NCBI GenBank assembly: GCA_902605215.1
Contig: CACLBX010000003.1
Span: forward strand, 4,378-68,377
Length of the DNA: 64,000 nt
Source: an uncultured Pelagibacteraceae bacterium
GTDB lineage: Bacteria; Pseudomonadota; Alphaproteobacteria; Pelagibacterales; AG-422-B15
Direction of reading: 5' to 3'
Shown here: in pieces, positions 5,889 through 61,205 of the stretch
Layout: every line of letters begins with the position of its first letter
Numbering within the stretch: the first letter of the stretch is position 1
Translations under genes and position numbers: made by a program
Notes under the pieces: model-generated
The model's database searches: none
Seen by the model: only the letters and a program-made list of their open reading frames with translations
Told to the model about the DNA's origin: nothing

Positions 5889-6692
5889 TTGACAAAAAGT
5901 ATATTTATTACTGGGGCAGCCTCTGGGATTGGCAAAGCAACCGCAATATCATTTGCTAAACAAGGCTGGCATGTTGGTTTGTTTGATATCAATGAGGAAG
6001 GTCTCAAAGAAGTAGCTAATCTTATTGGACACAACAAATGTATGTATCAAAAGCTAGATGTGACCAGTATTCAGGAGTGGAAAGAAGCTGAAAAAAGTTT
6101 TTCAGAATACACATCTGGAAAATGTAATATTTTTTTTAATAATGCAGGTATAGCTAATTTTGCTGGAGCTTTTGAAGATGTACACATTAATGAAATTCAT
6201 AAAATTATAGATGTTAATTTTAAAGGTGTCGCAAATGGCTGTATTTCAATGCTGAATTTGTTAAAGAATACAGAGAACAGCCTTCTTTTGAATACCAGTT
6301 CTGTAGCAGGTTTAGTGCCTACGCCTGGTATCGCTATTTATGGGGCAACTAAACACGCCGTAACTTCATTAACTGAATCTTTGAGAATTGAATATGAAAG
6401 ATATGGCGTAAGAGTCTCAGAAATTAATCCCTGGTTTACAGAGACACCAATACTTGAGGCAAAAAATGTATCGTCTGACATGCAAAGTCAATGGGAAAGA
6501 GATTTTGTTGAACAAAGAACAAAAGTTCATCCAGTATCTAAAGTCGTTGATAAAGTATGGCTGGCTTATAAAAGCAAGAAAATACACCATCCTGTAGGAT
6601 TAGAAGCAAACCTTGCATCATTCTTTATGCGTTTTATACCTTCTTTTGTTCGAAGAATGAGCAAAAAACTTTTTAAAGATACTTTTATTTAA
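5889..6692 (+). CDS. Short-chain dehydrogenase/reductase (SDR)
   Basis: TTG start. TGAASGIGKA Rossmann motif, NNAG, and YGATKHA (YxxxK). Confidence 0.85.
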   Translation: MTKSIFITGAASGIGKATAISFAKQGWHVGLFDINEEGLKEVANLIGHNKCMYQKLDVTSIQEWKEAEKSFSEYTSGKCNIFFNNAGIANFAGAFEDVHINEIHKIIDVNFKGVANGCISMLNLLKNTENSLLLNTSSVAGLVPTPGIAIYGATKHAVTSLTESLRIEYERYGVRVSEINPWFTETPILEAKNVSSDMQSQWERDFVEQRTKVHPVSKVVDKVWLAYKSKKIHHPVGLEANLASFFMRFIPSFVRRMSKKLFKDTFI

Positions 6693-7582: not shown

Positions 7583-8306
7583 ATTGTGTTAAGAATGGAA
7601 GATACTTTATAAAAAAGAAAGCCAATTCCTGAATTCTATTAGTTAGGATGAGAATACCAAATATTACAAGTAATACACCAGTAAAAATTTCTATAACTCT
7701 AATATAATTTCTTATTTTTATTAAAAATCTCATGAAGCCATTAATTGCATACGCGGCGAGTAGAAATGGAATACCAAGGCCTGCTGAGTAGAGCATTAAA
7801 AGAACAATTCCATAAGTAACTGTCTCTGAGCTTGCCGCAATTGATAGGACGCTGCCCAAAATTGGCCCTATACATGGCGTCCATCCGAAAGCAAAAGAGA
7901 GACCAATTACATAAGATCCAACTACTCCAGGTCTATAGCTTTCAATTTGGTACCTTGTGTCTCTATTTAGGAATGGAAGTTGGATAATTTGCATAAAATG
8001 AATACCAAAAATAATAATTATAATTCCACCAACAATTCTTAGAATATCTAAGTATTCATAAATTAAGCCACTTAATAAAGTTGCTGACGCGCCCAATAAA
8101 ATAAATACAGTAGAAAATCCAAAAACAAAACTTAAAGCAAAATAAAATACATTTCTCTCTTTTGAAGCATCCTCACCGGAGGCAATCTTATCTAAACTTG
8201 TGCCTGCTAAAAAACATAAGTAACCAGGCACAATAGGTAACACGCAAGGTGACAAAAAACTAAGTAGTCCCGCTAGGACAACATAAAAATATGATATTTC
8301 AGTCAT
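7575..8306 (-). CDS. ccdA: Cytochrome c biogenesis / thiol-disulfide electron transporter CcdA (DsbD transmembrane family)
   Basis: 243-aa polytopic protein with LSFLSPCVLPIVPGY and GWTPCIGPILG, the paired Cys motifs of CcdA. Confidence 0.85.
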   Translation of the reverse strand: MTEISYFYVVLAGLLSFLSPCVLPIVPGYLCFLAGTSLDKIASGEDASKERNVFYFALSFVFGFSTVFILLGASATLLSGLIYEYLDILRIVGGIIIIIFGIHFMQIIQLPFLNRDTRYQIESYRPGVVGSYVIGLSFAFGWTPCIGPILGSVLSIAASSETVTYGIVLLMLYSAGLGIPFLLAAYAINGFMRFLIKIRNYIRVIEIFTGVLLVIFGILILTNRIQELAFFFIKYLPFLTQFG

Positions 8307-9094
8307 TAAACTTTTCTAAATCTTTTAAATACTTCAGCGCCGCTCCAGCCTATAAGTATAGCGATTAGCAGGGAAATCAATCCATAAATTAAAGGATAGT
8401 TTTTTGAGAAGGAATAGATTGCCTCTTCAATACCTACTCTGGTTACTATAAAATTATAAGAATATTCATTTGAGATTTTATTATCTATAACCAGGTATAA
8501 ATTAACTTTATATTGACCAACAGGAACAGTGTTCGGTATCTCAATATAAGATCTAAATAAATTTCCATCAATTATATCAATTTCTCCATTAACCTTTCTG
8601 TATACATCTTCACTCTCTTTTGTTCTTATAAGAGCATCATAAAAAGATTCTTTATCCTTTTCATTTTTGATATTTCCCCAGTCAATATTTAATGCACTCC
8701 AGTCTATAAGCTGGGTATCTTTTTTATTTAATAGACCAATATTGTTTTCATTTAAAAATTCATTGGTTATCTCATTTGTACTTGAAAGATAATAAAATCC
8801 AGGTACATCGTAAAAACCAACACTTTTTGAATTCAGCCAGAAACCAAAGAAAGATTCCTTTTTTCTTACGACCACATCCTCTGATGGACCGACTACTTCA
8901 ATCAGAATATCACTCTTATCATCTCTTGATTGTGAGGGATCTGAATAAAAGGCCCCAAATACAAGAAGATTTTTTCCAGAAAAATTTGCATCAATGTATA
9001 TCTCCTCTTCATCAGATCCTATTACAAGCGCTGAGGCAGAAGAAATAAAAGCCAATACTAACAATTTAATAAAAAATAATATTCTCAAATTCAT
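8306..9094 (-). CDS. TIGR02186-like alphaproteobacterial membrane protein
   Basis: Signal peptide, large periplasmic domain and a single C-terminal TM. Sits directly downstream of a TauE/DUF81 gene, the usual partner of this family. Confidence 0.55.
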   Translation of the reverse strand: MNLRILFFIKLLVLAFISSASALVIGSDEEEIYIDANFSGKNLLVFGAFYSDPSQSRDDKSDILIEVVGPSEDVVVRKKESFFGFWLNSKSVGFYDVPGFYYLSSTNEITNEFLNENNIGLLNKKDTQLIDWSALNIDWGNIKNEKDKESFYDALIRTKESEDVYRKVNGEIDIIDGNLFRSYIEIPNTVPVGQYKVNLYLVIDNKISNEYSYNFIVTRVGIEEAIYSFSKNYPLIYGLISLLIAILIGWSGAEVFKRFRKV

Positions 9095-45882: not shown

Positions 45883-46947
45883 ATGGATCCACACTTAGTA
45901 GCAAAAAAAAACAAAGTTATTGATCTCATTAACAATCTAGAAGATGGCAACTTTGCATTGTTGCTCTTAATTCATATCTCTCGGTATCAAAATTTATTTT
46001 TGCATACAGAACCTGATTGGGAAAACAGCCCAAATAATTGGATAACCAAAGACAGACGACTCCAAGATGAGTCTATCGGAGTTCTTTCGTTCATCATTTT
46101 ATATTCTCTCACCAATGCGCATGTGGATGAAAATCTTTTTCCTGAATATAGAAAGCAAATTAAGGCAATGAAAATTGAAGATTTCTTGGATAATAATTTT
46201 TTTATTTCTCCATTCACAAATTTTATTGGAAAAAAAATATCTCTGAAAGTTCTTGAGTCATTTTTTTCTATTCCCCGAGAAAATATAAGACGATATATAA
46301 AGTCGTTGATAGAGGCTGGGTTTATTAGTAAAAACAAAAAGTATGGTTACCTTGTAAACATGGAGGCGTATGTTCAATACATATTTACAGACTCTCTTAG
46401 TAAAATTATGAAGTCACTCATGAGAACATTCGATGATATTATCGTTAATCTTGAAGAAAAGTATCAACTAAAATTAAATTTAAAACCAATCTCAGTTATA
46501 AATTTAGAAAAGACAAAACCCGATGTATGGAATCGAATTAGATTGCCCATGTATCACTTTTGGGTAAGAGTTCTAACACTAGAAGGCAATGATCACCTTT
46601 TAAGCCCCAATGATCGAGTTGTCTTATCTGCATCGATCTATTTTAGGAAACGTAAAGGAATATTAAATTTCACTAAAATTTCTGAGCTTTACGAAAATGA
46701 TTATCTCTTACCAACAAATATTTCATCAATTGCAGAGGCATCTAAAATGCCACGAGAAACTGTGAGGAGGTGTAGTAATAAATTAATAAAGATGAGACAT
46801 TTTGAAAAAAAAGGACGTCAACTGTATAGAATTAATTACGCTCATAAAGATGGAGAAATAGAAAATTTTATCAAGAATAAGAAAGTTACAACTCGCGATA
46901 TGATGAATTTTTATTTTAGAATTTACGATGATTTAGTTCAGATTTAA
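45883..46947 (+). CDS. Hypothetical protein with two winged-helix-like segments (possible regulator)
   Basis: 354 aa. IPRENIRRYIKSLIEAGFISK and ASKMPRETVRRCSNKLIKMRHFEKKGR look like recognition helices of MarR/Rrf2-like wHTH domains. Confidence 0.45.
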   Translation: MDPHLVAKKNKVIDLINNLEDGNFALLLLIHISRYQNLFLHTEPDWENSPNNWITKDRRLQDESIGVLSFIILYSLTNAHVDENLFPEYRKQIKAMKIEDFLDNNFFISPFTNFIGKKISLKVLESFFSIPRENIRRYIKSLIEAGFISKNKKYGYLVNMEAYVQYIFTDSLSKIMKSLMRTFDDIIVNLEEKYQLKLNLKPISVINLEKTKPDVWNRIRLPMYHFWVRVLTLEGNDHLLSPNDRVVLSASIYFRKRKGILNFTKISELYENDYLLPTNISSIAEASKMPRETVRRCSNKLIKMRHFEKKGRQLYRINYAHKDGEIENFIKNKKVTTRDMMNFYFRIYDDLVQI

Positions 46948-49721
46948 ATTGAGCACATTAAAATAATTTCTTCATTACAGACTAACTCAGCTTCAACAAT
47001 GGAACTATTTTGAGCACTTAATTGTGTATCAAGGGCTTCAAGCATAGATTTTGCTTCATTCATTGGTACTGGGCCTACAATAATGGAATAGTCATTTTTA
47101 TCTAATTTATCGACATTAATATCATATTTGAGAAATCTACTGTCAAATCCCATTACATCGTAAATATAATTCATAAAACTGAATGCAGAATTGCCACGTG
47201 TATACGATCCAATTTTTATATAAACATATTCAGCGTCACTGGTATCAATTGTTAATTCAGTTTCTTCAATATCGCTTGCTTGGGCACTAAATGCATTTGA
47301 TACAACTTCTGTAGGTTCTTCGATGAGTTGAGCGAGATCTTCTAATGCTTGGGTTGCTTCTTCAGCTAATTTATTTTCTAATTCAGTTGTGTTGTTGAGT
47401 TCTGTAAGTAAATCTCTCGCAGCATTGGCTTCCTCAACAAGGCTATTTTCATCAACAGCATTTAAAATTTTCTTTTTTGGTAAAACGCTAACCAATTCTA
47501 ATGTTTCTTCAGTATTATCAATTGTAGTTTCATCATTCGGCAATAGAGATGTATCTACCTGGTTCTCAATTGCATCAACCTCTGGAATCGCTTCTTCATC
47601 ACTATCGATTGCAGCTTCGTCGAGTATGTTTTGGGCTTTTTTAAGAGTACTATCAACAGAGTCTAACAAGTCATTCAGGCTATCTGCATCATTAATAATC
47701 ATTTCATTGGACACAGCATATTCATCCAAATCAATTTTTGGTTCATCAACAACTTCAGTAACTTCCGAAACTTCTTCATTAGTTTCCATGATTTCCTCAA
47801 CGGTCTCAATGCCTTGTTCTATGCTAATCTTATCCTCTTCAACTTGATTGAAACCTAACTGAATAAGTTCTTCTCTTGCGTTTTTACTTTCTTGGGCAAG
47901 GAATTCACCCTCATCCAAAAATTGAAGTGTGAAGTTATCCTCAACAGATACCAGTGCATTTGCAACAGAAACTTTTAATTTTATTCCAGATACGTCACTA
48001 GGAGGATTGCCCACAAATGACAAATCAGAAGTTAAAAAAGCAAGCCATCTTGGTAAAGCAGTTCCATCCTCTTGTGATGCTTCAAAACGCAGCTTGCCTG
48101 GTCCACTGATATTGAACGTATTGTCAGAAATTTGGAATTTATTACTGGTTTGTTGCGTATTGATTGGATCATTTATAATTAGAAGCATCGGATCCTGGTC
48201 ACTAATAGGAACATTTACCGCTGCTTGATAAACTTCTCCCCATTCAGAAAGATTAGTTTCAATATTTTTGCTCACATCCTCAATCGATAAATTCTGATGG
48301 TTTTCAGGCAGAATATCTTTTCCAAGTGATGCGTAAATTTGTCCAATACTGTGCTGCATTTCAGAGAAGGCTAAATCGCGTCGAAGTTCGGCAACCAATA
48401 AACTTGCTTCTTCCCGAATAACTTCAAGTTCGCCGAAGCGCGAGACTTTTTGTGCATTTTGTACTTGCTTACTGATCCTTTGAGCCACATCCAGGTATCT
48501 CTGCGCAGTATCATATTCTTCTATTGCTAAGGCATAATTCATATTTGAAAGATGGACTTGAGACAAAACTGTCATAGCAATAGCTAGATGACGTTCTGCA
48601 ATTAAATCTTTACTGGCTTTAGAAGATTTTTTTACAGCCCCTAATGAAAACACGTTAAAAAGGTTAGCTCCAATAGATGCGCCGTATTCTGTTGAGTCTT
48701 GGTTCAACAAATATTGATTGCTTGAATAACCGTAAGTCGCATTAAATTTTATACTTGGAATCAGCCCTAAAATAGCGGCTCTAGTATCCTTGCCAGTAAT
48801 CCTTTTTTGATAGCGACTTTCCATTAACTCAGGTCTTGAAACAAGTGCGATTTCTTCCATCTTTTCAATGTTCATATTTATATTAGTGAGGTAAGCATCA
48901 TCTCTTGACAGGCTAAACTTTTGACCAGGCAGTAATCCCATGAGTATCGCAAGTTCATTTTTGGAATTTATTAATGCTCGTTGTTGAGTTTGCAGCGTTC
49001 TTTGAACATCAAGTAATTCTTTTTGATAAAGTAATGAATCCATAGGTGCAGATATGAGAAGTTCTTCAATATACTTCGAGTCTGCAAGAGCTGTTTCAAC
49101 TCTCTCAAGAAGTGGATTTAATTTTTTTAAAAGATTTTCTGACGCCTGTGCTTTCCAGTAAGCGCGAATGATATCACGAGTAATGTTTTGTGTTGCTTTT
49201 CTCTCAAGTTCTTTAGCAATTAGATAACGATCCGCTTGTTGACCTGCTCGAATGTAGGACAAGCCAAAATCAAGAGCGTTCCATGTGAACTCAATATTTC
49301 TAGTTCTTAGACCTCTATCACGAGAAACAGTATAAGACTCAGTTCCATCAAGATCTGATGGTGGCTCACTATCATTTTCAACTGTAATACTCGTTGATGG
49401 CTGTAATTCATTAAATTCAGAGTAACCCGCATTGAGGGCAATATCTGGAAGCATATCAAAACGTTGAAGATCACTTTGCCTCTGCGCCAATGCAGACTCC
49501 ATTACGCTGATACGTAAGTCACGGTTGTTTTTAATGGCAATAGCAATTGCTGTATGGAGGTCTATGTTTTCTAGAGGAGCCTCAACTGTGAGCGACGATA
49601 AATCTTTTTGAATACTTATACTTAACTTTTCTGCGTCGATAACATTGGGTGTCCGAGCGCAGGCGCTAAGTGCAATCAATAGGAAGAGAGCTATTATTTT
49701 TGTAGTAATTTTTCTCATCAA
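46944..49721 (-). CDS. TolC/OEP-family outer-membrane lipoprotein fused to an Ig-like (dystroglycan/cadherin-type) domain, a long acidic linker and a SPOR-like C-terminal domain
   Basis: Lipobox LIALSAC (Cys21). About 430 aa of two-fold OEP-type helix/strand repeats. ALPRWLAFLTSDLSFVGNPP..IKLKVSV segment near 47930-48150. D/E-rich region 47236-47930. C-terminal YVYIKIGSY..YSIIVGPVPMNEAKSMLEAL. Confidence 0.8.
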   Translation of the reverse strand: MMRKITTKIIALFLLIALSACARTPNVIDAEKLSISIQKDLSSLTVEAPLENIDLHTAIAIAIKNNRDLRISVMESALAQRQSDLQRFDMLPDIALNAGYSEFNELQPSTSITVENDSEPPSDLDGTESYTVSRDRGLRTRNIEFTWNALDFGLSYIRAGQQADRYLIAKELERKATQNITRDIIRAYWKAQASENLLKKLNPLLERVETALADSKYIEELLISAPMDSLLYQKELLDVQRTLQTQQRALINSKNELAILMGLLPGQKFSLSRDDAYLTNINMNIEKMEEIALVSRPELMESRYQKRITGKDTRAAILGLIPSIKFNATYGYSSNQYLLNQDSTEYGASIGANLFNVFSLGAVKKSSKASKDLIAERHLAIAMTVLSQVHLSNMNYALAIEEYDTAQRYLDVAQRISKQVQNAQKVSRFGELEVIREEASLLVAELRRDLAFSEMQHSIGQIYASLGKDILPENHQNLSIEDVSKNIETNLSEWGEVYQAAVNVPISDQDPMLLIINDPINTQQTSNKFQISDNTFNISGPGKLRFEASQEDGTALPRWLAFLTSDLSFVGNPPSDVSGIKLKVSVANALVSVEDNFTLQFLDEGEFLAQESKNAREELIQLGFNQVEEDKISIEQGIETVEEIMETNEEVSEVTEVVDEPKIDLDEYAVSNEMIINDADSLNDLLDSVDSTLKKAQNILDEAAIDSDEEAIPEVDAIENQVDTSLLPNDETTIDNTEETLELVSVLPKKKILNAVDENSLVEEANAARDLLTELNNTTELENKLAEEATQALEDLAQLIEEPTEVVSNAFSAQASDIEETELTIDTSDAEYVYIKIGSYTRGNSAFSFMNYIYDVMGFDSRFLKYDINVDKLDKNDYSIIVGPVPMNEAKSMLEALDTQLSAQNSSIVEAELVCNEEIILMCSI

Positions 49722-49902
49722 TCTAGGATTTCTGTTTTGTCACAGATTCAATATGGAATTATAGACAAATGGGGTAAAACCAAAAAAATAATATACCCAA
49801 TATGAGTTGTTTAGGCTTATGTGAGTACCTTTCCAACTTTAGTGATGTATAAATAAAGTGCCGAAACCCAATATTTACATTGGCTAGAGAACATATAATT
49901 AA

Positions 49903-52900
49903 ATGAGCAATAAACTTATTCAGGCTTTGGAACCCCGTCTCATGCTGGACGGTGCAGCAGTAGCAACGGCAATTGATGCGGTTGATGATTTAGCTCAGTT
50001 TCAAAAATCCGAGAGTGATAAGTCATTTAAAGCAGATCACTTCAAAGTTGATAAAGATACGAAACTCCCTTTCGTAAATGTAGACGCATCAGCTCAAAAT
50101 GCAAAATCAAGACAGATTGTATTTATCGATAGCACAGTAGAAGATATTGAAACGCTGATTAATAGTTTTGATAAAAATACTGAGGTGCATGTCATACAAA
50201 GTGATCAAGACGGATTTGTTACCATGCAAAATATTTTATCATCTCAAGAAAATATAGATGCGGTTCACGTCATTGGTCACGGTAGTGTTGGACAGATTGC
50301 ATTCGGTACAGCTGTATTAAACAGCGATACATTAAATGCTTATGAAAATATTCTTCAAGAGATTGGAACAAGTCTTTCAGTAAATGGAGATATTTTATTT
50401 TATGGTTGCAACGTAGCCGCAGATCAAAGTGGTGAGATCTTAATCAAACAAATTGCAGACATCACGGATGCTGATGTAGCGGCATCAGATGATATTACTG
50501 GTAAAGGCGGTGATTGGGACTTAGAGAAACATACAGGCATTATTGAAACTGAAAATGTTTCAGTTGTAGGTTACCAATATGCTCTAAGTAATGGCGTAAC
50601 AGCAACCCAAAATGCTGTTGAATTACATACTTCAGGTATGAATTTCATGGCAGGCGGCGGAACCTATAAAAATAACACTGGAGGTCAAACAGACTCAGGT
50701 GGAACCAGATACATCGTCACGCTTGAAAGAGGGAATGTAACAACTGGAGATACTTTAGATTTTGATTACGATGTAGCTTCAGCAACTCACGACCCTGATA
50801 CTCAAGGTGCTGTTAATGTTTATATGGTCTTCCTAAATGACTATGTAAACAGAAGAGCCGAAGATGATAGAGGTATTATAACTTTTGATAATGAAATTCT
50901 TGGTATTTTTACCACCCCAGAGAACACGATAGCAAAATCTGGATATGACATGAGTGATGGTATCTATCCTCTAACAACCAATTCGAAAAAAGTGCAGATG
51001 AGGGATTTAGAGTATCTGGATCCTCCTGCTACTCCTCCTGGTACTATGGGTAGCCAAGATGCCTTTACTGTAACAGGATCCAATAAAGTTTTAACCATGG
51101 CTACAGACAATGGACTAAAAGGAGACTTTGTCAGGGTGGTTACCAGAGTAGCTTCTGATCCCGTAGTGGGCAATAATGATTCTGGTTATATTAATGAAAA
51201 CTTAACATTAGGTGTCTCTAATGGCGCAAGCGCAAATGATAGCACACCAGATACATCAGGAGAACACACAGGTGATGTTTTGCTTAATGACACTGGTGGT
51301 GATGGATCTGATTTAATTGTGAGTGCAATAAATGGAGGGTCCCTCGGATCGCCAGTTGATGGCACTTATGGTCAATTAACACTCTTTTCAAATGGTTCAT
51401 ACAGTTACTCAGCTAATAAAGATGCTGCGAATGAATTAGATGCAAGTGATACAGAAACTGATACCTTTACTTATACGGTTTCTGATGGAAGCGATACTGC
51501 TACTGCAACAATCACAATTACTGTTGCAGGTGTGAATGATGCGCCCGTTGGAGCAGCTGATACAGGCTACATCAAAGAAGATGGAACGTTGTCTGTATCT
51601 AATGGTGGCTCTGCTGTTACAGGAACAGATAGCAACAATAATAATGAAAGTGGTGATACTACGGGTGATGTTTTGCTCAATGATACTGACCCAGATGCGA
51701 GTGCAAGCTTAGTAGTATCAGCAGTGCAAGGACAGGCTAGTAATGTTGATTCAAATGTTACAGGCACTTACGGTACATTAAATTTAGATGCAAATGGCTC
51801 ATATACCTATATAGCCAATCAAAGTGCTGCAGACGGACTCGCTGCTGGAGCAACGGCAACAGACACATTTTCTTATACTGTTAGTGACGGCACTGCAACA
51901 AGCACAGTAAATTTGGTCATCACGGTTATAGGGGTAGGGCCTGAAGCGGTCGCTGATACAGCTTCAGTTAATGAAAATGTTTTGCTTAATGCCAACAATG
52001 CATCGTCTACCGGTTTACTGGCTAATGATGACGACAATGCTGCTTATGATAGTGAGAGCTTAGCTGTTACGAACGTTAGTTCTAACTCTACAGGAAACAG
52101 TGGTAGTGCTACACAGGGAGTTCTCGGTACGTATGGTACGCTCACTGTGGCAGCTGATGGTACTTATACATATACGCCAAATACAGCAGCAGCTGAAGCA
52201 TTGGATGCAAATGACACTGAAACAGATGTCTTCACTTACACAGTAAAAGATGATGATGATAAAAATTCAAGTACTGCAACGCTTACAATCACAGTAACAG
52301 GTGTTGACGACAACCCGGTTGCTGTCAGTGATACAGGTTATATCAATGAGGATGGAACACTGGCTGTAGCAGATGGTGGCTCTGCTGTTACAGGAACAGA
52401 TAGCAACAATAATAATGAAAGCGGTGATACCACAGGCGATGTTTTACTCAATGACACTGACGCAGATGCGAGTGCAACTCTTGTTGTTTCTGCAATACAA
52501 GGTGGATCTTTAGGATCAGGTGTGAATGGAACCTATGGTACCCTCACTTTATATTCAACCGGTAGATATACATATGTTGCAGATAAGAGTGGCGCGGATG
52601 GACTTGCAGCAGATGCAGTTCAAACTGATGTCTTTACATATACTGTAAGTGATGGAGCTGGCGATACGAGTAACGCTACTCTTACAATTACAGTAAAGGG
52701 TATTGGTCCCCAAGGCGTAGCGGACACAGCGTCTGTAGCTGAAAATGCAACGGTAACCAACAACAATGCTGCCACAAACGGAGTGCTCGCAAACGATGAT
52801 GATAACGCATCATTTGACCAAGAAAGTCTTGCTGTAACGGCAATAACAGGTGCATCAGCAGGAACAGTTGATGGTGACACAACAGGAACTCATGGAACAC

Positions 52901-55900
52901 TTTCAATGAATGAAGATGGTACTTATTCTTATGCGGCGACTAATGATGCTCTTGATCCTAATGAGCAAGTTACAGATATATTTACTTACACTGTAAAAGA
53001 CGATGCGAATAAAAATGCAAGTACTGCGACATTAACAATAACAGTAACTGGAGCAAATGACCCAATTACTGCTGTTGCTGACACGGATGCTGTAAATGCT
53101 GGATCTACAATTTCTCGAAGTGAAACTGATACAGAAGAACTTGATCATGACGATACTGACCCTGATGGTGATGATGTATCAGGCAGCTTTACTATTACTA
53201 ATATCAGACATGGTTCTGATGATTATAACCCTGGTCAAGAAATTACGACATCAAAAGGTAGATTAACAGTCGATGCAAATGGTTCTTATACTTATGTAGC
53301 TGATCAAAGCGGTTCAACAGGCTTAGGAAACGGTGTTCAAGCAACTGATGTCTTCACTTATACAGTAAGAGATCACAGTGGAGGTGATACAGACACCGCA
53401 ACACTTACGATCACAATTACAGGAACTAACAATACAGCACCAGTTGCCAATACCGATGCAGGTTATATTCTGGAGGATGGTCGTCTTGAAGTAACAGATG
53501 GTGCGACGGCAAATGATGCTACTCCGGATGCAACAGGAGAACATACAGGGGATGTCTTATTAGATGATACTGATGCAAACAGTGACACACTTACTGTTTC
53601 AGCAATATCAGGAGGATCAGTGGGCTCTAATGCAAATGGGACTTACGGAACATTAGTAATTCAAAGTAATGGTAGCTATGTCTATACAGCGGATAAGACT
53701 GCAGCAGATGCATTGGATGCTGATGATGTGGTTACTGATCAATTTATCTATACAATTAGTGATGGCAATGGAGGAACTGCGACTTCAACACTTACCTTCA
53801 CCGTAAAAGGGATTGATGATGATCCTGTTGGTGTAGCCGATACAGGAGCAGTTGATGAAGACGCTCAACTTCAAGTAAATGCTGTAAGTGGAGTATTATC
53901 AAATGATACTGATGCTGATGCGAGTTCAAGTCTGTCCGTGACCACAGTTAGTTCCAATAACACAAGTCAAAGTGGAAGTGCTGGTTCAGAAATTACAGGC
54001 GAATTCGGGTCCCTCACACTAGATTCAGATGGAAAATATACATACACAGCCAATACTGCAGCTGCTGATAATTTAGCCCATAATGCAACGGCCACTGACG
54101 TGTTTACCTATACCGTCAGCGATGGCGCTGGAACGACCAGCAATACTACTCTTACAATTACAGTTACAGGGAAAGGCCCTGTTGGTTCTGCTGATTCTGC
54201 TGCAGTAAATGAAAATGTGTTACTCAGCAAGGATGAAGCAAGTGGTGTTCTAACAAATGATACTGGTGGAGATCAAGAAAGTCTTGCAGTTACTAATATT
54301 TCCTCAAATGATACCAGCGCAACAGGTACTGCTGGTCAGGGAGTGTTAGGAACCTACGGGACTTTAACTATGGCTGCAGATGGAAGTTATACATATACGC
54401 CTAATACAGCCGCCGCAGAGGCTCTAGATGGTGGTGACTCGGTTTCAGAAAAGTTTACCTATACAGTAAAAGATGATGAGGATAAAAATTCTTCAACCGC
54501 TGAACTTACAATTAATATTACAGGTGTTAATGATGCCATCGTTGCAGTTGATGATACGGATGCTGTTGATGAGGATGGTAGAGTAGACAGGTTAATTAGT
54601 GATGATCAAGAACTTGATCATGACGATACAGATGTGGATACGGATGATGTAAGCGGAAGTCTCACGATTACTGATATAAGAACAGGTCCTAAAGATGGAA
54701 CCGGAACTGATGGCACGGTAGGTGTGGCGCTAACAGGAGAATATGGAACACTGACAGTGAATGATGATGGATCATACACTTATATCGCTGATCAAGATAA
54801 ATCAGATCAACTTCCCACAGGTCAAACAGGAACAGATACATTTACCTACACTGTGAGTGATGGTACTGAAACTTCGACCGCACAACTGACTTTCAAAGTC
54901 ACTGGTATCAATGATAACGATCCAGTTGCTGTAGACGACACTGATACTGTAAATAGAGATGCATCCATAGATAGAACAAATGGATCTACATTTGATCTAG
55001 CTATTGATGATACAGATGCAGACTCGGATACATTAACCATTACTGAAATAAGAAAAGGCAACACTAAAGGTGGAGGTGATGCTGGAACTATAGGACAACC
55101 ACTAGTTGGTGAATACGGAACATTAACGTTACAAGCAGACGGCAGTTATAAATATGCTGCTGATCAAGACTCGATCAATAACCTTGGTCGTGGACAAAGT
55201 GTAATTGAGTATTTTAATTATACCGTATCTGATGGCTCAAGAACTACAACAGGACTACTTTCAATTACTGTAAATGGTATTAGTGATCCGCCTGTTCCAG
55301 TGGATGATACACTAGACATTGACGCTGGTGCACAAACAGAAAAAGGTGCAAATCAAGGGGTATTGATAAATGATACTGACCCTGATGGAGATCCTTTATC
55401 CGTGGAAAGCATTAGAACTGGTCAAGAAAATAAAACGGGGACATCAGGTACCATTGGAACAGCCTTACCAGGAACATATGGCGATTTAACTATGAATTCT
55501 GACGGAAGCTACATCTATCAAGCTAACAATGCAAAAGCACTAAATCCTGGTGAAACTGCTACAGAATACTTTACTTATACAGCAACCGACGGTGAGTCCT
55601 CAGTAGAAGCTCAAATTGCTATTACCGTGACAGGTCAAAATGATCCACCTGTAGCTTTATACCCTGTTCGAGATCCAAATGTAGTTACAGGTGAAAAATT
55701 TATTATCAGGCACAAACAAATTTTTGATGATCCAGACACAGGTATTTATGACATCGCAGAATACAAAATTATTGATCCTGAAGATGGTACAGAAGTAAGT
55801 CTTCCTGATGGACTAAGACTAAAACAAAATAAAATTCATGGATCCATTAGTACACCTGGGACATACAGTATTACAATCAGAGCAATTGATGGAGCAGGCC

Positions 55901-57027
55901 TCTATGCTGATCATACTTTTACAATCACAGTTAAGCCTGCATCAGGGTATATCGCTGAAAAGGATACTATTGATGAAGAAGCATCATCTACTTATGAAAC
56001 GGTTGTGATCAAACCAAAGAAAGATTATTTATCTGCAATTAAAGAAACAGTTAATGAGGGGTCCTTAGGTATCACTGATGAAGGCTTTACGTTGGATACA
56101 GTATCAATCGCTGATACCGCATCTCTTTCAAAACCTCTAAAATTCAATGGCGGTTTGCGATTGATGGATGCCGTTGCAAATGAAGTATCAGGCAATGAAG
56201 AGTCTGATTTATCAGTTGGTGTTAAATTGAATGATGATAATCAGAAAAATGTTGAACTGTATTCAGGAAAACTCTCTGACGGGAAAGCCTTACCCGAGTG
56301 GATACAAGTCAATCCTGAAACAGGCGAAACAACAGCCAATATGCCTGAAGGTGTGCAAGAAGTTGAAGTACAGCTTGTTGCCTTGGACAAAGACGGTAAC
56401 ACAAGAGATATCAACATTGTTCTGGATAAAGCAAAAATTAAAAACGACCAAGAATTTACTCGAGGTAACGTTGGTCAAACACAGGTTGTGGTTGATAATG
56501 ATGCCAATGTAAATCTAATTCGTAAAAGTGATGGCAAGACTGATCAAGTAGCATCAAACAATTTAAATGCTGAAACGGACTTCCTAGGCACCATGAAGCT
56601 TAGCGATGTCCAAATGGATGCGGGCAAATATACTCTGGATATGATCGATGACAATCAATCAAATGTAAAAATGTATAAAGCCGAGATGAAAGATGGGGGC
56701 TCTTTACCTGAATGGATTACTATTGATTCAGATACAGGATCAATCTCGCTAGACCCATCAATAGCTCGAACAGGTTCTGCAGCCTCAGTATTTTTAACGG
56801 ACAGTCTTCAAGTGCTTGAGTTTAAAATTATTGCTGAGGATGAAGATGGCAAAGAGAGAATAATCGAAGTTGAAATTAATCTTGATGAAATCGCTACGCC
56901 ATCTGAAACTGAAGAGCAAGCTGAGGAAACTGATGAAGTTTCGTTTATTCCTCTTGATGAACAACTTAAGGTACAGTCTCAGAAAATAGATAATTATGGC
57001 GAAAAAATTATTAGTCTTGTAAGCTAA
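49903..57027 (+). CDS. Giant (2374 aa) surface adhesin-like protein: N-terminal LEPRLMLDGAA motif + DUF4347, 12 VCBS/cadherin-like repeats, C-terminal Ig-like (He_PIG/dystroglycan-type) domains
   Basis: No hydrophobic signal peptide. DUF4347-like block QIVFIDSTVED..VHVIGHGSVGQIAFG..ILFYGCNVA (about 50110-50550). Twelve units ending (F/Y)TYTVSDG/KDD...ATLTITVTG(V/I)(N/D)D. SLPDGL..GSISTPGTYSITIRAIDGAG and two LPEWI..D..TG domains at the C-terminus. Confidence 0.9.
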   Translation: MSNKLIQALEPRLMLDGAAVATAIDAVDDLAQFQKSESDKSFKADHFKVDKDTKLPFVNVDASAQNAKSRQIVFIDSTVEDIETLINSFDKNTEVHVIQSDQDGFVTMQNILSSQENIDAVHVIGHGSVGQIAFGTAVLNSDTLNAYENILQEIGTSLSVNGDILFYGCNVAADQSGEILIKQIADITDADVAASDDITGKGGDWDLEKHTGIIETENVSVVGYQYALSNGVTATQNAVELHTSGMNFMAGGGTYKNNTGGQTDSGGTRYIVTLERGNVTTGDTLDFDYDVASATHDPDTQGAVNVYMVFLNDYVNRRAEDDRGIITFDNEILGIFTTPENTIAKSGYDMSDGIYPLTTNSKKVQMRDLEYLDPPATPPGTMGSQDAFTVTGSNKVLTMATDNGLKGDFVRVVTRVASDPVVGNNDSGYINENLTLGVSNGASANDSTPDTSGEHTGDVLLNDTGGDGSDLIVSAINGGSLGSPVDGTYGQLTLFSNGSYSYSANKDAANELDASDTETDTFTYTVSDGSDTATATITITVAGVNDAPVGAADTGYIKEDGTLSVSNGGSAVTGTDSNNNNESGDTTGDVLLNDTDPDASASLVVSAVQGQASNVDSNVTGTYGTLNLDANGSYTYIANQSAADGLAAGATATDTFSYTVSDGTATSTVNLVITVIGVGPEAVADTASVNENVLLNANNASSTGLLANDDDNAAYDSESLAVTNVSSNSTGNSGSATQGVLGTYGTLTVAADGTYTYTPNTAAAEALDANDTETDVFTYTVKDDDDKNSSTATLTITVTGVDDNPVAVSDTGYINEDGTLAVADGGSAVTGTDSNNNNESGDTTGDVLLNDTDADASATLVVSAIQGGSLGSGVNGTYGTLTLYSTGRYTYVADKSGADGLAADAVQTDVFTYTVSDGAGDTSNATLTITVKGIGPQGVADTASVAENATVTNNNAATNGVLANDDDNASFDQESLAVTAITGASAGTVDGDTTGTHGTLSMNEDGTYSYAATNDALDPNEQVTDIFTYTVKDDANKNASTATLTITVTGANDPITAVADTDAVNAGSTISRSETDTEELDHDDTDPDGDDVSGSFTITNIRHGSDDYNPGQEITTSKGRLTVDANGSYTYVADQSGSTGLGNGVQATDVFTYTVRDHSGGDTDTATLTITITGTNNTAPVANTDAGYILEDGRLEVTDGATANDATPDATGEHTGDVLLDDTDANSDTLTVSAISGGSVGSNANGTYGTLVIQSNGSYVYTADKTAADALDADDVVTDQFIYTISDGNGGTATSTLTFTVKGIDDDPVGVADTGAVDEDAQLQVNAVSGVLSNDTDADASSSLSVTTVSSNNTSQSGSAGSEITGEFGSLTLDSDGKYTYTANTAAADNLAHNATATDVFTYTVSDGAGTTSNTTLTITVTGKGPVGSADSAAVNENVLLSKDEASGVLTNDTGGDQESLAVTNISSNDTSATGTAGQGVLGTYGTLTMAADGSYTYTPNTAAAEALDGGDSVSEKFTYTVKDDEDKNSSTAELTINITGVNDAIVAVDDTDAVDEDGRVDRLISDDQELDHDDTDVDTDDVSGSLTITDIRTGPKDGTGTDGTVGVALTGEYGTLTVNDDGSYTYIADQDKSDQLPTGQTGTDTFTYTVSDGTETSTAQLTFKVTGINDNDPVAVDDTDTVNRDASIDRTNGSTFDLAIDDTDADSDTLTITEIRKGNTKGGGDAGTIGQPLVGEYGTLTLQADGSYKYAADQDSINNLGRGQSVIEYFNYTVSDGSRTTTGLLSITVNGISDPPVPVDDTLDIDAGAQTEKGANQGVLINDTDPDGDPLSVESIRTGQENKTGTSGTIGTALPGTYGDLTMNSDGSYIYQANNAKALNPGETATEYFTYTATDGESSVEAQIAITVTGQNDPPVALYPVRDPNVVTGEKFIIRHKQIFDDPDTGIYDIAEYKIIDPEDGTEVSLPDGLRLKQNKIHGSISTPGTYSITIRAIDGAGLYADHTFTITVKPASGYIAEKDTIDEEASSTYETVVIKPKKDYLSAIKETVNEGSLGITDEGFTLDTVSIADTASLSKPLKFNGGLRLMDAVANEVSGNEESDLSVGVKLNDDNQKNVELYSGKLSDGKALPEWIQVNPETGETTANMPEGVQEVEVQLVALDKDGNTRDINIVLDKAKIKNDQEFTRGNVGQTQVVVDNDANVNLIRKSDGKTDQVASNNLNAETDFLGTMKLSDVQMDAGKYTLDMIDDNQSNVKMYKAEMKDGGSLPEWITIDSDTGSISLDPSIARTGSAASVFLTDSLQVLEFKIIAEDEDGKERIIEVEINLDEIATPSETEEQAEETDEVSFIPLDEQLKVQSQKIDNYGEKIISLVS
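51150..55650 (+). repeat. Tandem array of about 12 coding repeats (about 100-130 codons each) inside the adhesin gene, with an about 257-codon higher-order period
   Basis: Recurrent FTYTV(S/K)D(G/D) .. TLTITVTG.(N/D)D unit boundaries. A 47-nt tract at 51604-51650 is identical to 52375-52421 (offset 771 nt). Confidence 0.85.
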
Positions 57028-57039
57028 TTCTGTAAATAA

Positions 57040-57759
57040 ATGAATAAAGTTAAAACATCGTTAGCAGCGTTTTGCTTTCTTTTTATATCTTTTGGGGCAC
57101 TAGCTGAAGAAAGAACAACACGTATTTTAGTTACTGCAACTGAAGAGGCGACTTTATCAAGTGAAATTTCAGCAAAAATAATTTCTATTCCTGTAAAAGC
57201 AGGAAATAACTTTAGTAAATCAGATATTTTAATTGAATTTGACTGTTCCTTTTTTGAAGCTCAAAAAGATGTCGTACAAGCAGAACTAGATAGTGCCAGA
57301 GTAACTCTAAAAAGTAACCAAGAGCTTGCTGCGATGAGATCTATTGGAGAGTACGAAGTTCAACTATCTCGAATAGCAGTTGATCGAGCACAATCAGAAT
57401 TAAATATTGCAGAACTCAACACTGATCGTTGTATTATTCAAGCGCCCTATGACGGAGTCATGTCCAAAGTCTTTGTAAATGAGTACGAAAGTATTGAAAG
57501 GCAACAGCCATTGATTGAAATTATTGGTTCAGGCACATTAGAGGCAAAACTTATGATATCAAGTAAATGGCTATCATGGTTATCTGAAGGATATCCTCTA
57601 AGTATAGTTATTGATGAGAATGGCTTAGAGTATAGTGCACAAATACATTCTTTAGGTGCAGATATAGATCCGGTAAGTCAGACGATTGATGCTACCGCAC
57701 AATTTGATAAAAATTATGAGACATTACTTCCAGGAATGAGTGGGACAGCAACGTTTTGA
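57040..57759 (+). CDS. Short periplasmic HlyD/MFP-type adaptor (secreted, 239 aa)
   Basis: Signal peptide ..FISFGALA/EE. Barrel-sandwich segments ISAKIISIPVKAGNNFSKSDILIEF and IIQAPYDGVMSKVFVNEYE flank a short coiled coil. Confidence 0.75.
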   Translation: MNKVKTSLAAFCFLFISFGALAEERTTRILVTATEEATLSSEISAKIISIPVKAGNNFSKSDILIEFDCSFFEAQKDVVQAELDSARVTLKSNQELAAMRSIGEYEVQLSRIAVDRAQSELNIAELNTDRCIIQAPYDGVMSKVFVNEYESIERQQPLIEIIGSGTLEAKLMISSKWLSWLSEGYPLSIVIDENGLEYSAQIHSLGADIDPVSQTIDATAQFDKNYETLLPGMSGTATF

Positions 57760-59099
57760 ATGATAATTCTTCAATAAAAATTGCACGACTAATTACACTT
57801 GAAAAAAAGTTTCGTAACGCTGAAAGTGAAACAGAACTTGGTTTTATTTGTGCTAACGAATTACGGAGTATAGTTGACTATAATTTCTTATTTATTCTCA
57901 ACAGATCAAGCATAAACCGACTTAAAGTGAATACTATTTCTGATTTATCAGTCATTGATAGAACAGCTCCAACCGTTACCTTTATTGAGGGATTGCTCAA
58001 TAAGAAAGGAATGATCAAAAGTGATGAAGTATCTGCAATTAGTCTTCAAAGCCTTGATTTAGATAAAGTAAATCTAAATATCCCTGAAAATTTTCCAAAT
58101 CATTTAGTCTTTGTTCCTTTGTCTTCACGAATAGAAAAAAATATTGGTTACTTAGTTCTTGTAAGAACAGAACCAGTTACAAGTTCAGAAAAAGATTTAT
58201 TATTACACATCTCTGAAAGCTTTAGCCATGCGCTCACTGCTTTTGGCTCAAAAAAAACGGTTTTAACAAGTATCAGTCGTATATTTACAGGGTGGGTAAA
58301 GTGGCTAGTGATTGCATCCATAACTGTGGTGATGTTCTTTCCTATTAGCATGTCAGCTTTGGCGCCTGTAGAGGTGGTTGCAAAAGATCCAACTATAGTT
58401 ACATCACCTGTGAACGGTGTTGTTGAAAAAGTTTTAATTAAGACCAACGAAAATGTAAAACCAGGTACAGAACTAGTTAAACTGGACGATTTAAATTTTA
58501 AAAATCAGTATGAAATTGCACTTCAGAAACTTGAAGTAGCTGAAGCCGAGCTGTTAAGAGTTAAGCAGTCATCATTTTCAAATGAAGATGATAAAGCACG
58601 CCTGGTTGAACTTTCAACTGAAGTAGGTTTAAGGAAAAAAGAAGCCACCTACGCAGAAGAACAATTGAAATACTCAATCATTTCTGCTGAGCGAGAGGGT
58701 ATAGCGGTGGTTGAAGACTTTACTGATTGGCAAGGGAGACCTGTTACCATTGGCGAAAAAATATTAACTATAGCTGATCCTCAACGCATTGAATTTCAAA
58801 TCTTTTTACCCACTAAAGATTCTCTTTTGATTAAAAAAGAAGCCAGAGTAAAAGTGTTTTTAGATAGTGACCCTCTTAATTCTCTTGAAGGAGAAGTCTT
58901 GCGTACTTCTTATAAGCCTGCTCTTACGGCTGAGAATATTTTAGCATATCAGATTTTTGCAAAATTAGATGAAAACCAAGGAGAAGTTCCAAGAATAGGT
59001 TTACGAGGTACAGCAAAAATTTACGGAGAAAAAACAAGTATTTTTTACTACATATTCCGTGTTCCTATAAATCTTACGAGACAATTTTTAGGTTTTTAG
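57756..59099 (+). CDS. HlyD-family adaptor with an about 170-aa cytoplasmic N-terminal domain and a single TM
   Basis: TM WLVIASITVVMFFPISMSAL, then IVTSPVNGVVEKVLIKTNENVKPGTELVKLDD, a coiled coil, and IISAEREGIAVV. 4-nt overlap upstream and no gap downstream. Confidence 0.75.
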   Translation: MNDNSSIKIARLITLEKKFRNAESETELGFICANELRSIVDYNFLFILNRSSINRLKVNTISDLSVIDRTAPTVTFIEGLLNKKGMIKSDEVSAISLQSLDLDKVNLNIPENFPNHLVFVPLSSRIEKNIGYLVLVRTEPVTSSEKDLLLHISESFSHALTAFGSKKTVLTSISRIFTGWVKWLVIASITVVMFFPISMSALAPVEVVAKDPTIVTSPVNGVVEKVLIKTNENVKPGTELVKLDDLNFKNQYEIALQKLEVAEAELLRVKQSSFSNEDDKARLVELSTEVGLRKKEATYAEEQLKYSIISAEREGIAVVEDFTDWQGRPVTIGEKILTIADPQRIEFQIFLPTKDSLLIKKEARVKVFLDSDPLNSLEGEVLRTSYKPALTAENILAYQIFAKLDENQGEVPRIGLRGTAKIYGEKTSIFYYIFRVPINLTRQFLGF

Positions 59100-61205
59100 A
59101 TGACTGTTCCATACTTAAGACAAGATTTGAAATTGAGTGAGGGTCCCAAAAAAGAGGATGGCTCTTCATCGTGGCTGCTTTATGACTCTTTAAGAAATAA
59201 ATATTTTTCGATCAATAAAAATGCTTTTGATCTCTTAAACAACTGGTCAAGTGGATCTCAATTAGATGATTTCATTAAAAAAATTAATGAAGTTAACTTA
59301 TTAGTAAGTGAAGAAGAAATAAATGAATTTATCAATTTTCTAGATCAAAATAATTTGACGATCAAAAAGACCAGTGAAGAAGTAAAGTCTTTAGTGGTTC
59401 AAAAAAACAAAACGAACAAACATTGGCTACTTAAACTCATTCATAACTATCTATTTTTCAAAATACCTTTAGTAAGACCTGGGACTTGGCTTCAAACAAG
59501 TTTACCCATTGCCTTGTTCTTGAGCTCATTAACAGTCAGACGCATAATTTATGGTTTTGGAATAATTGGAATATTTCTGACAATAACTAATTATGAGAAA
59601 TTTCTCTCAACCTTTTCATATTTCTACAATATTAATGGTCTGATCTTATTTGGAATTACAATTGTTTTTGTAAAGGCTTTACATGAGTTGGGTCATGCGT
59701 ACGTAGCTACATACTATAAGTGTAAAGTTTCATCAATTGGCTTAGCCATGTTGGTTTTCTTTCCATTCTTATATACGGATACATCCGATGCCTGGAAACT
59801 CACTGATCACAGAAAACGTTTACTAATAAATTTTGCAGGCATGTTAACTGAACTACACCTAGCCTTGATTGCTACATTTGCATGGGCTGTATTTCCTGAG
59901 GGCATCATGAAAAGTGCAGCATTTTTTATTGCAACATCAAGCTGGATCTCATCATTGTTAATAAATATAAGTCCCTTTATGCGGTTTGATGGCTATTATG
60001 TTCTCTCTGATTTTCTTAAAGCTGAAAATTTGCAACTGCGTTCATTTGCTTTAGGTCGATGGCAGATAAGAGAGTGGCTCTTTGGTTTTAAATTTCAGCC
60101 ACCTGAACAGTTGATCGCTAACAGAAGGTGGACTTTTATAATTTATGCATGGGCTACGTGGATTTATCGTTTCTTCATTTTTATTGGTATTGCATTATTG
60201 GTTTATTATTTAACATTTAAAATATTAGGGATTATTTTATTTGTAATAGAAATTGTATGGTTCATTTTATTGCCGATTGCTAGAGAAGTTATTCAATGGT
60301 GGAAGCTTAGAAAGTCGATGAAATTCAATAGATCTTCTATGAGGTCTATCGTCTTGTTCACAGCATTTATGATTGCCATGCTTGTTCCATGGCGTACATC
60401 TCTAAGTTTGCCAGCTGTTATTGAAGAAGGTGTTGTTCTTGATATTTTTGCATCGGAGGACTCAAAGATAAGAAAAGTTAATGTTTTGCATAATCAGTAT
60501 GTAGCTGAGGGAGACTTGCTAGTTGTTATGACTAGTCCTTTGATCTCTAATAAAGTTGAAAAAGCAATAGATCGTGTAAAAATGATACAGCAAAAACTTG
60601 ATCGTAGAGTGGGATCAAAGCTTGATCTTAGTAATCTATTAATACTAGAGAATGAGTTACAAAAAGAGATTGAAATTCTGAATTCATTGAAAGAAGAAAA
60701 TAAAGCTTTATCAATTTATGCACCATCAGATGGCATAATAAAAGATTTGATAAGTCTCAGCGCTAATCAATGGGTAAATAAAAAAGATAAGCTATTTTCA
60801 ATTGTTCAGTCAGAAGAGGTACAAGTGATAGCTTTTGTTAGCGAGACGGATCTTGATAAAATAAAAAAAGTTTCAAGCGGTTATTTTTATGCAAAAAATA
60901 ATGAATTTGCGAAAGTCAAAGTCGAATTAGTATCATCAAATGAAACTTCAACCGAAGAGTTGCCGTATTTAGCTTTGACCTCAACTTATGGAGGCACAAT
61001 TGCATCAAGAGAAATACTTGGAAAGAAAAAAGTTCAGAGACCTGAAAATGCTCTTTATCAACTAAATTTCACTTCTTCAGAGAGTCTAAAAGATTTACAG
61101 TGGCAGACAGCTGGATCTGTTAAAATAGATTCAGAAAATTATAATATTTTTCAAAATATATTTAACGCCACGACTTCAATACTCATTCAGGAAAGTGGGT
61201 TCTAG
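59100..61205 (+). CDS. Tri-domain protein: PqqD/RRE-like N-domain + site-2 protease (peptidase M50) membrane core + HlyD-like periplasmic C-domain
   Basis: HELGH at 59682-59696. NISPFMRFDG (NxxPxxxxDG) at 59964-59993. Several TM helices. C-terminal LDIFASEDSKIRKVNVLHNQYVAEGDLLVV, a coiled coil, then IYAPSDGIIKDL. N-terminal WLLYDSLRNKYFSINKNAFDLLNNW..EEINEFINFLDQNNL. Confidence 0.8.
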   Translation: MTVPYLRQDLKLSEGPKKEDGSSSWLLYDSLRNKYFSINKNAFDLLNNWSSGSQLDDFIKKINEVNLLVSEEEINEFINFLDQNNLTIKKTSEEVKSLVVQKNKTNKHWLLKLIHNYLFFKIPLVRPGTWLQTSLPIALFLSSLTVRRIIYGFGIIGIFLTITNYEKFLSTFSYFYNINGLILFGITIVFVKALHELGHAYVATYYKCKVSSIGLAMLVFFPFLYTDTSDAWKLTDHRKRLLINFAGMLTELHLALIATFAWAVFPEGIMKSAAFFIATSSWISSLLINISPFMRFDGYYVLSDFLKAENLQLRSFALGRWQIREWLFGFKFQPPEQLIANRRWTFIIYAWATWIYRFFIFIGIALLVYYLTFKILGIILFVIEIVWFILLPIAREVIQWWKLRKSMKFNRSSMRSIVLFTAFMIAMLVPWRTSLSLPAVIEEGVVLDIFASEDSKIRKVNVLHNQYVAEGDLLVVMTSPLISNKVEKAIDRVKMIQQKLDRRVGSKLDLSNLLILENELQKEIEILNSLKEENKALSIYAPSDGIIKDLISLSANQWVNKKDKLFSIVQSEEVQVIAFVSETDLDKIKKVSSGYFYAKNNEFAKVKVELVSSNETSTEELPYLALTSTYGGTIASREILGKKKVQRPENALYQLNFTSSESLKDLQWQTAGSVKIDSENYNIFQNIFNATTSILIQESGF

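Follow-up and report, generated by a model that had tools for sequence, protein, structure and literature searches.

A LEPR-type N-terminal tag on a giant SAR11 adhesin and its linkage to a TolC/HlyD/M50-HlyD module

The question raised by this locus is how a giant surface-type protein that carries no familiar export signal could be assigned to a route out of the cell. The DNA considered here, which we call the window, is a stretch of 64,000 nucleotides (64 kb) from an uncultured Pelagibacteraceae bacterium of the SAR11 group (contig CACLBX010000003.1, positions 4,378 to 68,377), and all positions are counted within it. The window encodes an adhesin of 2374 amino acids (aa) that begins MSNKLIQALEPRLMLDGAAVATAID and in which neither a Sec signal nor an RTX block is found. 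An earlier note on this DNA proposed that the motif LEPRLMLDGAA near the start of the adhesin is a leader, recognized or cleaved by a leader-binding-like protease fusion encoded three genes downstream. The motif reads exactly so, after an unambiguous start, and the M50-HlyD gene is the third gene downstream of the adhesin. The machine in question would consist of a TolC-type channel, two HlyD-type adaptors and a 701-aa protein that fuses three parts: a PqqD-like domain resembling the recognition element (RRE) of peptides made by the ribosome and modified after translation (RiPPs), an M50 site-2 protease and a HlyD adaptor. We find the tag to be genomically tied to this module, and it is most probably the address label of the machine.

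The tag and its linkage to the module

We first ask whether the tag is real. An in-frame TAA (49900-49902) abuts the adhesin ATG, so the N-terminus cannot reach further upstream. The NCBIfam family NF012209 ("LEPR-XLL", curated cut-off 17 bits) matches residues 6-25 of the adhesin, with 16.3 bits, just under the cut-off, when the whole repetitive protein is scored and 23.1 bits, above it, when the first 40 residues are scored alone. The tag sits right at the N-terminal end of a protein that is very large and repetitive, which fits the placement of LEPR-XLL. The Pfam family PF07595 (Planc_extracel, gathering score 25.5 bits) matches neither this N-terminus nor the others of its class (class A, defined below), even at E = 10. 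A hidden Markov model (HMM) of the motif, built without any SAR11 sequence, gives the adhesin N-terminus 30.1 bits, and the second-best match in the six frames of the window scores 4.3 bits. Given these database and HMM scores the tag is real, unique in the window and far beyond chance.

Aligning 32 N-termini from Alpha- and Gammaproteobacteria, Nitrospirota and Campylobacterota, we find L9, E10, R12 and D16 invariant, and A18 and T22 at least 90% conserved. The linker that separates the leader from the following DUF4347 domain is unconserved and runs from about 25 to 150 residues among the homologues. In an AlphaFold2 model of adhesin residues 1-235, made with 32 homologues, tag and linker are predicted to be disordered (predicted local distance difference test, pLDDT, below 50 for residues 1 to about 65), and the tag neither packs against DUF4347 nor contacts it. 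The conserved DGA/DAA had raised the candidate of a double-glycine-type leader; it is rejected, as the hydrophobic spacing misfits and no C39 peptidase is present.

The next question is whether the tag goes with the module or with DUF4347. Among 301 Pseudomonadota genomes surveyed, full-length relatives of the M50-HlyD protein are present in 88 and DUF4347 in 89. Both occur in 78 genomes, M50-HlyD only in 10, DUF4347 only in 11, and neither in 202. Around M50-HlyD genes we examine 80 loci, with 10 kb on either side and 1.38 Mb in all read in six frames. The lineages covered are SAR11, Colwellia, Marinobacter, Marinomonas, Halomonas, Pseudomonas, Stutzerimonas, Hyphomicrobium, Azospirillum relatives, Nitrospira, Arcobacter, Sulfurimonas, Zetaproteobacteria and Desulfonema. 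The row TolC-adaptor-adaptor-M50-HlyD is conserved in these loci. Matches of the motif HMM are bimodal: 42 reach at least 18 bits and the noise stays at or below 8 bits. All 42 lie within the first ~150 codons of giant open reading frames (ORFs) adjoining the module. Two further loci have tag variants recognized by eye only, and in 19 of the 80 the giant ORF extends past the edge of the locus, with its start outside the view.

The distribution among DUF4347 genes is equally sharp. Every one of the 40 DUF4347 genes on the same contig as an M50-HlyD gene carries the tag (39 are detected by the motif HMM; the fortieth reads MEPLEPRCLFDGA). In seven genomes of 98-100% completeness that lack an M50-HlyD match, none of the nine evaluable DUF4347 proteins does so; these tagless proteins start straight with the domain or with a Sec-type signal. 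Among genomes without such a match the tag occurs only in two incomplete ones (57% and 69% complete). The motif is thus not equally conserved without M50-HlyD, a result that favours the tie to this gene proposed in the earlier note. One genome (G050) has ten DUF4347 proteins and the tag on only the two that are linked to a module. Conversely, giant proteins adjoining the module bear the tag without DUF4347 in two genomes that have M50-HlyD and no DUF4347 (G123 and G292; ORFs of 4385 and 3939 codons) and in a Halomonas locus. The linkage spans phyla and several gene orders. It is the tag, not DUF4347, that is genomically tied to the machine.

The note had also described this start as common in DUF4347 proteins. 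That stands for the module-linked ones (25 of the top 30 DUF4347 matches, in 30 genomes, are tagged), but it is not a property of DUF4347 as such: each occurs without the other. The motif was already catalogued as NF012209/PF07595.

The other eight DUF4347 proteins of G050 share a different N-terminal pattern. Tagless DUF4347 proteins of this genome and of G174 (loci L263-L270, L036 and L037), which lie away from M50-HlyD genes, read roughly T..TDGS(I/L)V(I/L)P.P..W. This pattern may direct such proteins to a different route, as an address of a second type.

Two classes of tag and module

We turn to the variety of the tag, which comes in two classes, as does the module. The class A tag, that of the window, reads xALEPR(I/L)M(F/L)DGAAxAT; its NF012209 scores range from 23.1 bits to below the cut-off and it has no PF07595 match. 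The class B tag reads (F/V)E(A/P)(L/M)EPRxLLS(A/G)(D/E), followed by prolines, and scores 29-35 bits with NF012209; one class-B relative exceeds the PF07595 cut-off at 30.3 bits. The M50-HlyD partner is canonical in class A and divergent in class B, where it matches the protein of the window at only 1e-35 to 1e-52. Class A has no dedicated ATPase, and a SecA_DEAD gene is absent from the operon of the window. Class B has a GAF-HlyD adaptor, the counterpart of the 447-aa adaptor of the window, and a 722-aa SecA_DEAD protein that includes a preprotein cross-linking domain.

Class-B tagged proteins adjoin the divergent M50-HlyD gene in four genomes (G258, G006, G228 and G280). In G006, which also holds class-A modules, the neighbour of a class-B M50-HlyD gene is a gene of 14,920 codons, and each of the two class-B M50-HlyD genes is directly adjoined by a shortened SecA. 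These shortened SecA proteins of 665-722 aa have DEAD, preprotein cross-linking and P-loop domains; the positions noted for this arrangement are G006:C1:2681482-2682624 and 2800201-2801379, and 6646-8811 (minus strand) in locus L232. Four complete genomes with class A only, including a Pelagibacter, have the housekeeping SecA alone. That the class of the tag matches the class of the machine speaks for a specific link in function; the match is silent on which part of the machine reads the tag.

Both halves of this pairing have been described separately. Studholme, Fuerst and Bateman (2004, as quoted in PMC8567305) reported the motif RRLxxExLExRxLLA (PF07595) on surface proteins of Rhodopirellula as a probable novel N-terminal export signal, and in Tuwongella immobilis it occurs on 52 proteins, including 8 of the 10 longest (PMC8567305). 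The likeness to the window is a short N-terminal LExRxLL-type motif on very large surface-type proteins with no Sec signal. The difference is that the window has LEPRxM(F/L)DGAAxAT, which PF07595 misses, and that several class-A members fall under the NF012209 cut-off. Neither the NF012209 entry nor PMC8567305, in the parts cited, names a receptor or machine for the motif. On the side of the module, Kamneva, Poudel and Ward (2015; PMC4452313) described a type-I-secretion-related set comprising an M50-like HlyD protein, GAF-HlyD, SecA_DEAD, HlyD and OEP. In their view the M50 protein might make up the pore; they proposed SecA_DEAD as the motor and gave the role of the module as unknown; they named no cargo and no tag, and the word "giant" is absent from their paper. 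The protein families are the same and the class-B loci are that module; the class-A module of the window differs in lacking a SecA_DEAD gene. Our literature search found no paper that connects the tag with the module or with an RRE. Descriptions thus exist of the tag family and, separately, of the module, and their pairing, the class-A variant and the reading by an RRE are new, so far as we have found.

What reads and what cuts the tag

If the tag is an address, which part of the machine reads it? We examine the 701-aa protein with an AlphaFold2 model made with 54 homologues (mean pLDDT 86.5). Its N-terminal domain has strands at residues 11-14, 24-29 and 34-39 and helices at 40-47, 55-64 and 71-83. 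Comparing 53 such N-domains with 16 genuine PqqD proteins by hhalign gives a probability of 94.3% and E = 1e-7 over 68 columns, and the PqqD-family model NF050069 weakly matches residues 23-86 (E = 3e-4). The best NCBIfam match of the protein is the daptide intramembrane metalloprotease NF041824 (residues 23-390, 4e-36); because its 125 bits fall under the 300-bit cut-off, the 701-aa protein is not an orthologue of that protease. The description of the N-domain as leader-binding-like is therefore upheld by hhalign, by the modeled topology and by NCBIfam: an RRE-like domain is supported. It is kept in both classes, with R7, D29, W49 and L86 invariant, and one class-B member exceeds the Pfam PqqD cut-off.

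For the remainder of the protein, PF02163 (Peptidase M50) scores 36.7 bits against a cut-off of 27.2, and H195, E196, H199, N289, D297 and G298, which cover HExxH and the aspartate of NxxPxxxxDG, show no variation in either of the two sets of homologues compared (27 and 54). By Foldseek, the C-terminal part is similar to MacA, EmrA and MexA; a Foldseek search with the whole model returns mostly adaptors and is uninformative on the N-domain.

Combining this information, the best explanation as a whole, and one that we place slightly on the probable side, is that the leader is a disordered address tag which commits the adhesin to the surrounding machine, is read by the RRE-like domain and is clipped by the M50 domain. 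The PqqD/RRE-like domain would read the tag in the cytoplasm, as with RiPP leaders. The adhesin would next be threaded outward via the adaptor-TolC conduit, and the intramembrane M50 domain would clip the tag, whether while export is under way or in order to set the protein free. In this account we infer which part receives the tag, that the tag is cut, which way the protein is threaded and what powers its export. Two grounds place the RRE-like domain in the cytoplasm: its homology to the daptide protease, and the periplasmic position that the HlyD part must have. The RRE-like domain has in our view an even chance of being the tag receptor, and the M50 domain may cut the tag, which we put at somewhat less than even. 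The SecA-type motor of class B fits an N-first threading of the tagged preprotein, and is at the same time a rival reader of the tag. The proposal of the earlier note is thus partly supported: the link between tag and machine is strong, and the RRE ligand and the cleavage are hypotheses.

A close precedent is the daptide protease MpaP, a site-2 protease with an RRE fused at its N-terminal end; recognition of the leader is ascribed to the RRE and removal of the leader to the protease, the leader motif being ELExMEAP (10.1101/2023.03.08.531785). MpaP shares the N-terminal RRE and the M50 domain with the 701-aa protein, to which it is homologous over residues 23-390, and its leader has a conserved acidic-Leu-x-Pro/Met motif. 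The differences are that MpaP acts on a peptide of ~40 aa, here replaced by a protein of 2374 aa, that no modifying enzymes are present here, and that a HlyD adaptor is fused to the protein here, with TolC and two more adaptors alongside. Set against a RiPP leader/RRE system in general, the locus has the PqqD-like RRE and lacks both the short precursor peptide and the modifying enzymes; the cluster consists only of TolC, three adaptor-type proteins and the protease fusion. The absence of a small precursor gene, which the note had remarked on, is borne out: the gaps in the operon are 12 nucleotides (nt) or less, and no small precursor-peptide gene or second tag-bearing ORF is found in the window. 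Between TolC and the adhesin there are small ORFs of 22-39 aa with TTG starts, none with the motif.

Two better known export systems invite comparison. In the ATP-binding cassette (ABC) transporters that contain a peptidase (colicin V/double-glycine type), the protease of the export component reads and cuts an N-terminal leader, and the transporter works with an adaptor and TolC. By analogy we propose a similar leader-cutting protease inside an inner-membrane export component; the differences are that there is here no ABC protein and no C39 peptidase, that a zinc site-2 protease is fused to the adaptor, and that the cargo is of megadalton scale. The second system is LapA with LapG and LapD: LapA is a giant adhesin that passes through a TolC-type channel, and its N-terminus governs how it is kept at the surface and released by proteolysis. 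Its export relies on a C-terminal signal and on a type I system driven by an ABC protein, and LapG is a periplasmic cysteine protease; in this locus neither the ABC-driven system nor LapG is encoded. The module does have the HlyD-type adaptor and TolC-type channel of type I secretion, and its ABC component is missing. The operon contains no dedicated ABC exporter, only 9 of the 80 module loci have ABC-like ORFs, which are unconserved, and in a complete Pelagibacter genome no ABC protein of type I secretion scores above its family cut-off.

Several results weigh against the explanation that we favour. Related genomes are not independent, and neighbourhoods overstate independence as well; we have put the weight on the neighbourhoods and the exceptions. 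For some modules (G074 and G274) a tagged gene is missing from the surrounding 20 kb. The sequence evidence for the RRE-like domain is indirect: Pfam PqqD matches only 3 of 53 single N-domains, weakly (E 0.013 or worse), and the N-domain profile run against the sequences of the PDB returns nothing below E = 0.8. Over 80 pairs of tag and M50-HlyD protein, the partial Mantel correlation of motif distance is r = 0.08 with the RRE, 0.19 with M50 and 0.13 with HlyD, i.e., weak for all three domains and least for the RRE once the others are controlled. As the RRE correlation is no better than that of the rest of the protein, this distance-matrix test lends the RRE no specific support. Mutual information between motif and RRE columns gives no RRE-specific co-variation, with high-entropy columns dominating. 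The SecA-like ATPase of class B has a preprotein-binding domain and could read the tag instead, and a C-terminal element found in a subset of the tagged proteins could be the true secretion signal. In the same comparison of motif and RRE we considered a charge swap pairing R/K at motif position +2 with Q at RRE position 34; it is rejected, as a single clade provides it and Q34 is found with Pro as well.

The C-terminal element leads to the alternative that survives best, which we nonetheless consider unlikely. The tag would be a retention handle and export would depend on another signal, for example the C-terminal element FxPLxEQL...helix; the RRE-like domain would hold the N-terminus at the inner membrane, keeping the adhesin attached to the cell, until cleavage by M50 released the protein, in the manner of LapG and LapA. 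The linkage of tag and module counts for this reading too, the linker behind the tag is long and disordered, the M50 protease site is intact, and the element is conserved and common to LEPR proteins of SAR11, Colwellia, Marinobacter, Arcobacter and others (by BLAST; example loci L075, L084, L101, L073, L127, L195 and L204). However, only about 10 of the 35 complete proteins have it, the LEPR proteins of other lineages having unrelated C-termini, whereas the N-terminal tag is universal. There is also no ABC exporter found that would drive a C-first type I export, and the class-B partner is a SecA-type motor. In the Sec pathway SecA acts on N-terminal signals.

Ranked next, and improbable in our estimate, is that the tag does direct the adhesin to this machine, with a different component as its reader: the M50 core, the cytoplasmic N-domain of the 447-aa adaptor (which is GAF in class B), or SecA (dedicated in class B, housekeeping in class A), with the RRE-like domain binding something else or being regulatory. 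The lack of RRE-specific co-variation in the distance-matrix and mutual-information tests speaks for this alternative, and it gains from the shortened SecA, with its preprotein cross-linking domain, beside each class-B M50-HlyD gene of G006, from the housekeeping SecA alone in class-A-only genomes and from the motor role already proposed for SecA_DEAD (PMC4452313). Against it stand the conservation of the RRE-like domain with its four invariant residues in both classes, the class-B member above the Pfam PqqD cut-off and the leader recognition assigned to the RRE of the homologous daptide protease; moreover, no alternative ligand is encoded nearby.

The weakest alternative, that DUF4347 cuts or uses the tag as an N-terminal self-processing unit and that the M50-HlyD link is inherited gene order only, draws on the clan-CD-like fold of the domain, its conserved His and Cys and its closest solved relative, and is very improbable, being largely refuted by the dissociation of tag and DUF4347: the tag occurs beside the module without DUF4347, DUF4347 without the tag is always away from modules, the AlphaFold2 model has no contact between the two, and the linkage holds across phyla and gene orders.

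The domain itself deserves a closer look. It is modeled with a pLDDT of ~97, and a Foldseek search with the model finds as its best match 9qpe_G, Tce1/PA0256 (E = 6e-6), followed by caspases and legumain (~1e-3). Tce1 (PA0256), a DUF4347 protein of a Pseudomonas type VI system, is a putative cysteine protease with a His/Cys pair (PMC8262886, PMC13323088). In DUF4347, His122 (at least 90% conserved) and Cys169 (invariant) match this pair. On the model, DUF4347 may be a self-processing cysteine protease domain directly behind the leader; it cannot explain the link of the tag to the module, because tag and DUF4347 dissociate across genomes.

Returning to the tag as an address read by the RRE-like domain, we raise as a possibility, somewhat short of even, that the LEPR tag together with the RRE-M50-HlyD/adaptor/TolC set forms an undescribed secretion route for megadalton surface proteins, in which a RiPP-type domain would read the leader, M50 would replace the ABC component and clip the leader, and class A would work without a dedicated ATPase. 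SAR11 are among the most abundant bacteria of the ocean and the operon is conserved across them. Tag and machine are present as well in Nitrospira, Pseudomonas, Marinobacter, Azospirillum relatives, Arcobacter and others, frequently in multiple copies, and the proteins they serve there are the largest that those genomes encode. If the tag is an address label, it joins the "planctomycete export signal" of 2004, the "type-I-like module of unknown role" of 2015 and the unexplained export of giant adhesins without Sec signal or RTX block, and it provides a simple sequence rule for predicting the cargo of the pathway.

Features of the locus and minor observations

The features of the locus are collected in Table 1. 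The closest relatives of the 701-aa protein are "site-2 protease family proteins" of Pelagibacter, whose genomes have the same four-gene order after giant genes of 6339 and 9101 codons.

Table 1. Position and strand of the adhesin, its parts and the neighbouring module genes in the window
Feature	Position	Strand	Evidence or remark
TolC-family outer-membrane channel with C-terminal extension; divergent, upstream of adhesin	46944..49721	-	most loci with the module have a TolC gene
Giant adhesin gene, 2374 aa; VCBS/cadherin-like repeats	49903..57027	+	Pfam/NCBIfam
Conserved N-terminal leader, adhesin residues 1-26 (MSNKLIQALEPRLMLDGAAVATAIDA): short polar/basic start, LEPRxMxD core, GAAVAT tail	49903..49980	+	
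LEPRLMLDGAA core, class A variant of LEPR-XLL	49927..49959	+	begins at residue 9, 8 residues past the start codon
Variable acidic/polar linker between leader and DUF4347, residues 27-71	49981..50115	+	
DUF4347 (PF14252), caspase-like clan CD alpha/beta fold, residues 72-218	50116..50556	+	PF14252 E = 2e-48
C-terminal element VSFIPLDEQL...NYGEKIISLVS, last ~29 residues of adhesin	56938..57024	+	BLAST
Small secreted HlyD-type adaptor, 239 aa; starts 12 nt after adhesin	57040..57759	+	kept in module across the 80 loci
Adaptor, 447 aa: cytoplasmic N-domain, one transmembrane segment, HlyD part; overlaps 239-aa gene by 4 nt	57756..59099	+	
Fusion protein, 701 aa: PqqD/RRE-like domain, M50 site-2 protease, HlyD adaptor; no gap after 447-aa gene	59100..61205	+	
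RRE-like N-domain, residues 1-100, three strands then three helices; proposed leader reader	59100..59399	+	
HELGH zinc-binding motif of M50 (H195, E196, H199)	59682..59696	+	

Among other C-termini of LEPR proteins, those of Nitrospira (L088, L092, L117 and L137) have a hydrophobic stretch and a basic tail (…LLTALLSTVPAWQFVNPL…KKNKR). This arrangement, absent from the SAR11 protein, looks like a membrane anchor or sorting signal. A gammaproteobacterial group of LEPR proteins (L177, L184, L185, L187 and L193) has a common C-terminal domain (GSEGHSIFAYNLIKALK…PQTPQYGAV.SAGHE.GGDF).

Two further loci contain what seem to be traces of former copies. In L225 (G024:C1:962700-964200), a second LEPR/DUF4347 N-terminus of the module type lies ~1 Mb from the module and has an in-frame TAG; it is probably a decaying duplicate. 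In the Nitrospirales locus L088 (12966-13518), the DNA between the module and the next intact LEPR gene has short ORF fragments in which a degraded tag (LEERIMFDCVPLANGAEV) and parts of DUF4347 can be read; they look like remnants of a former cargo gene.

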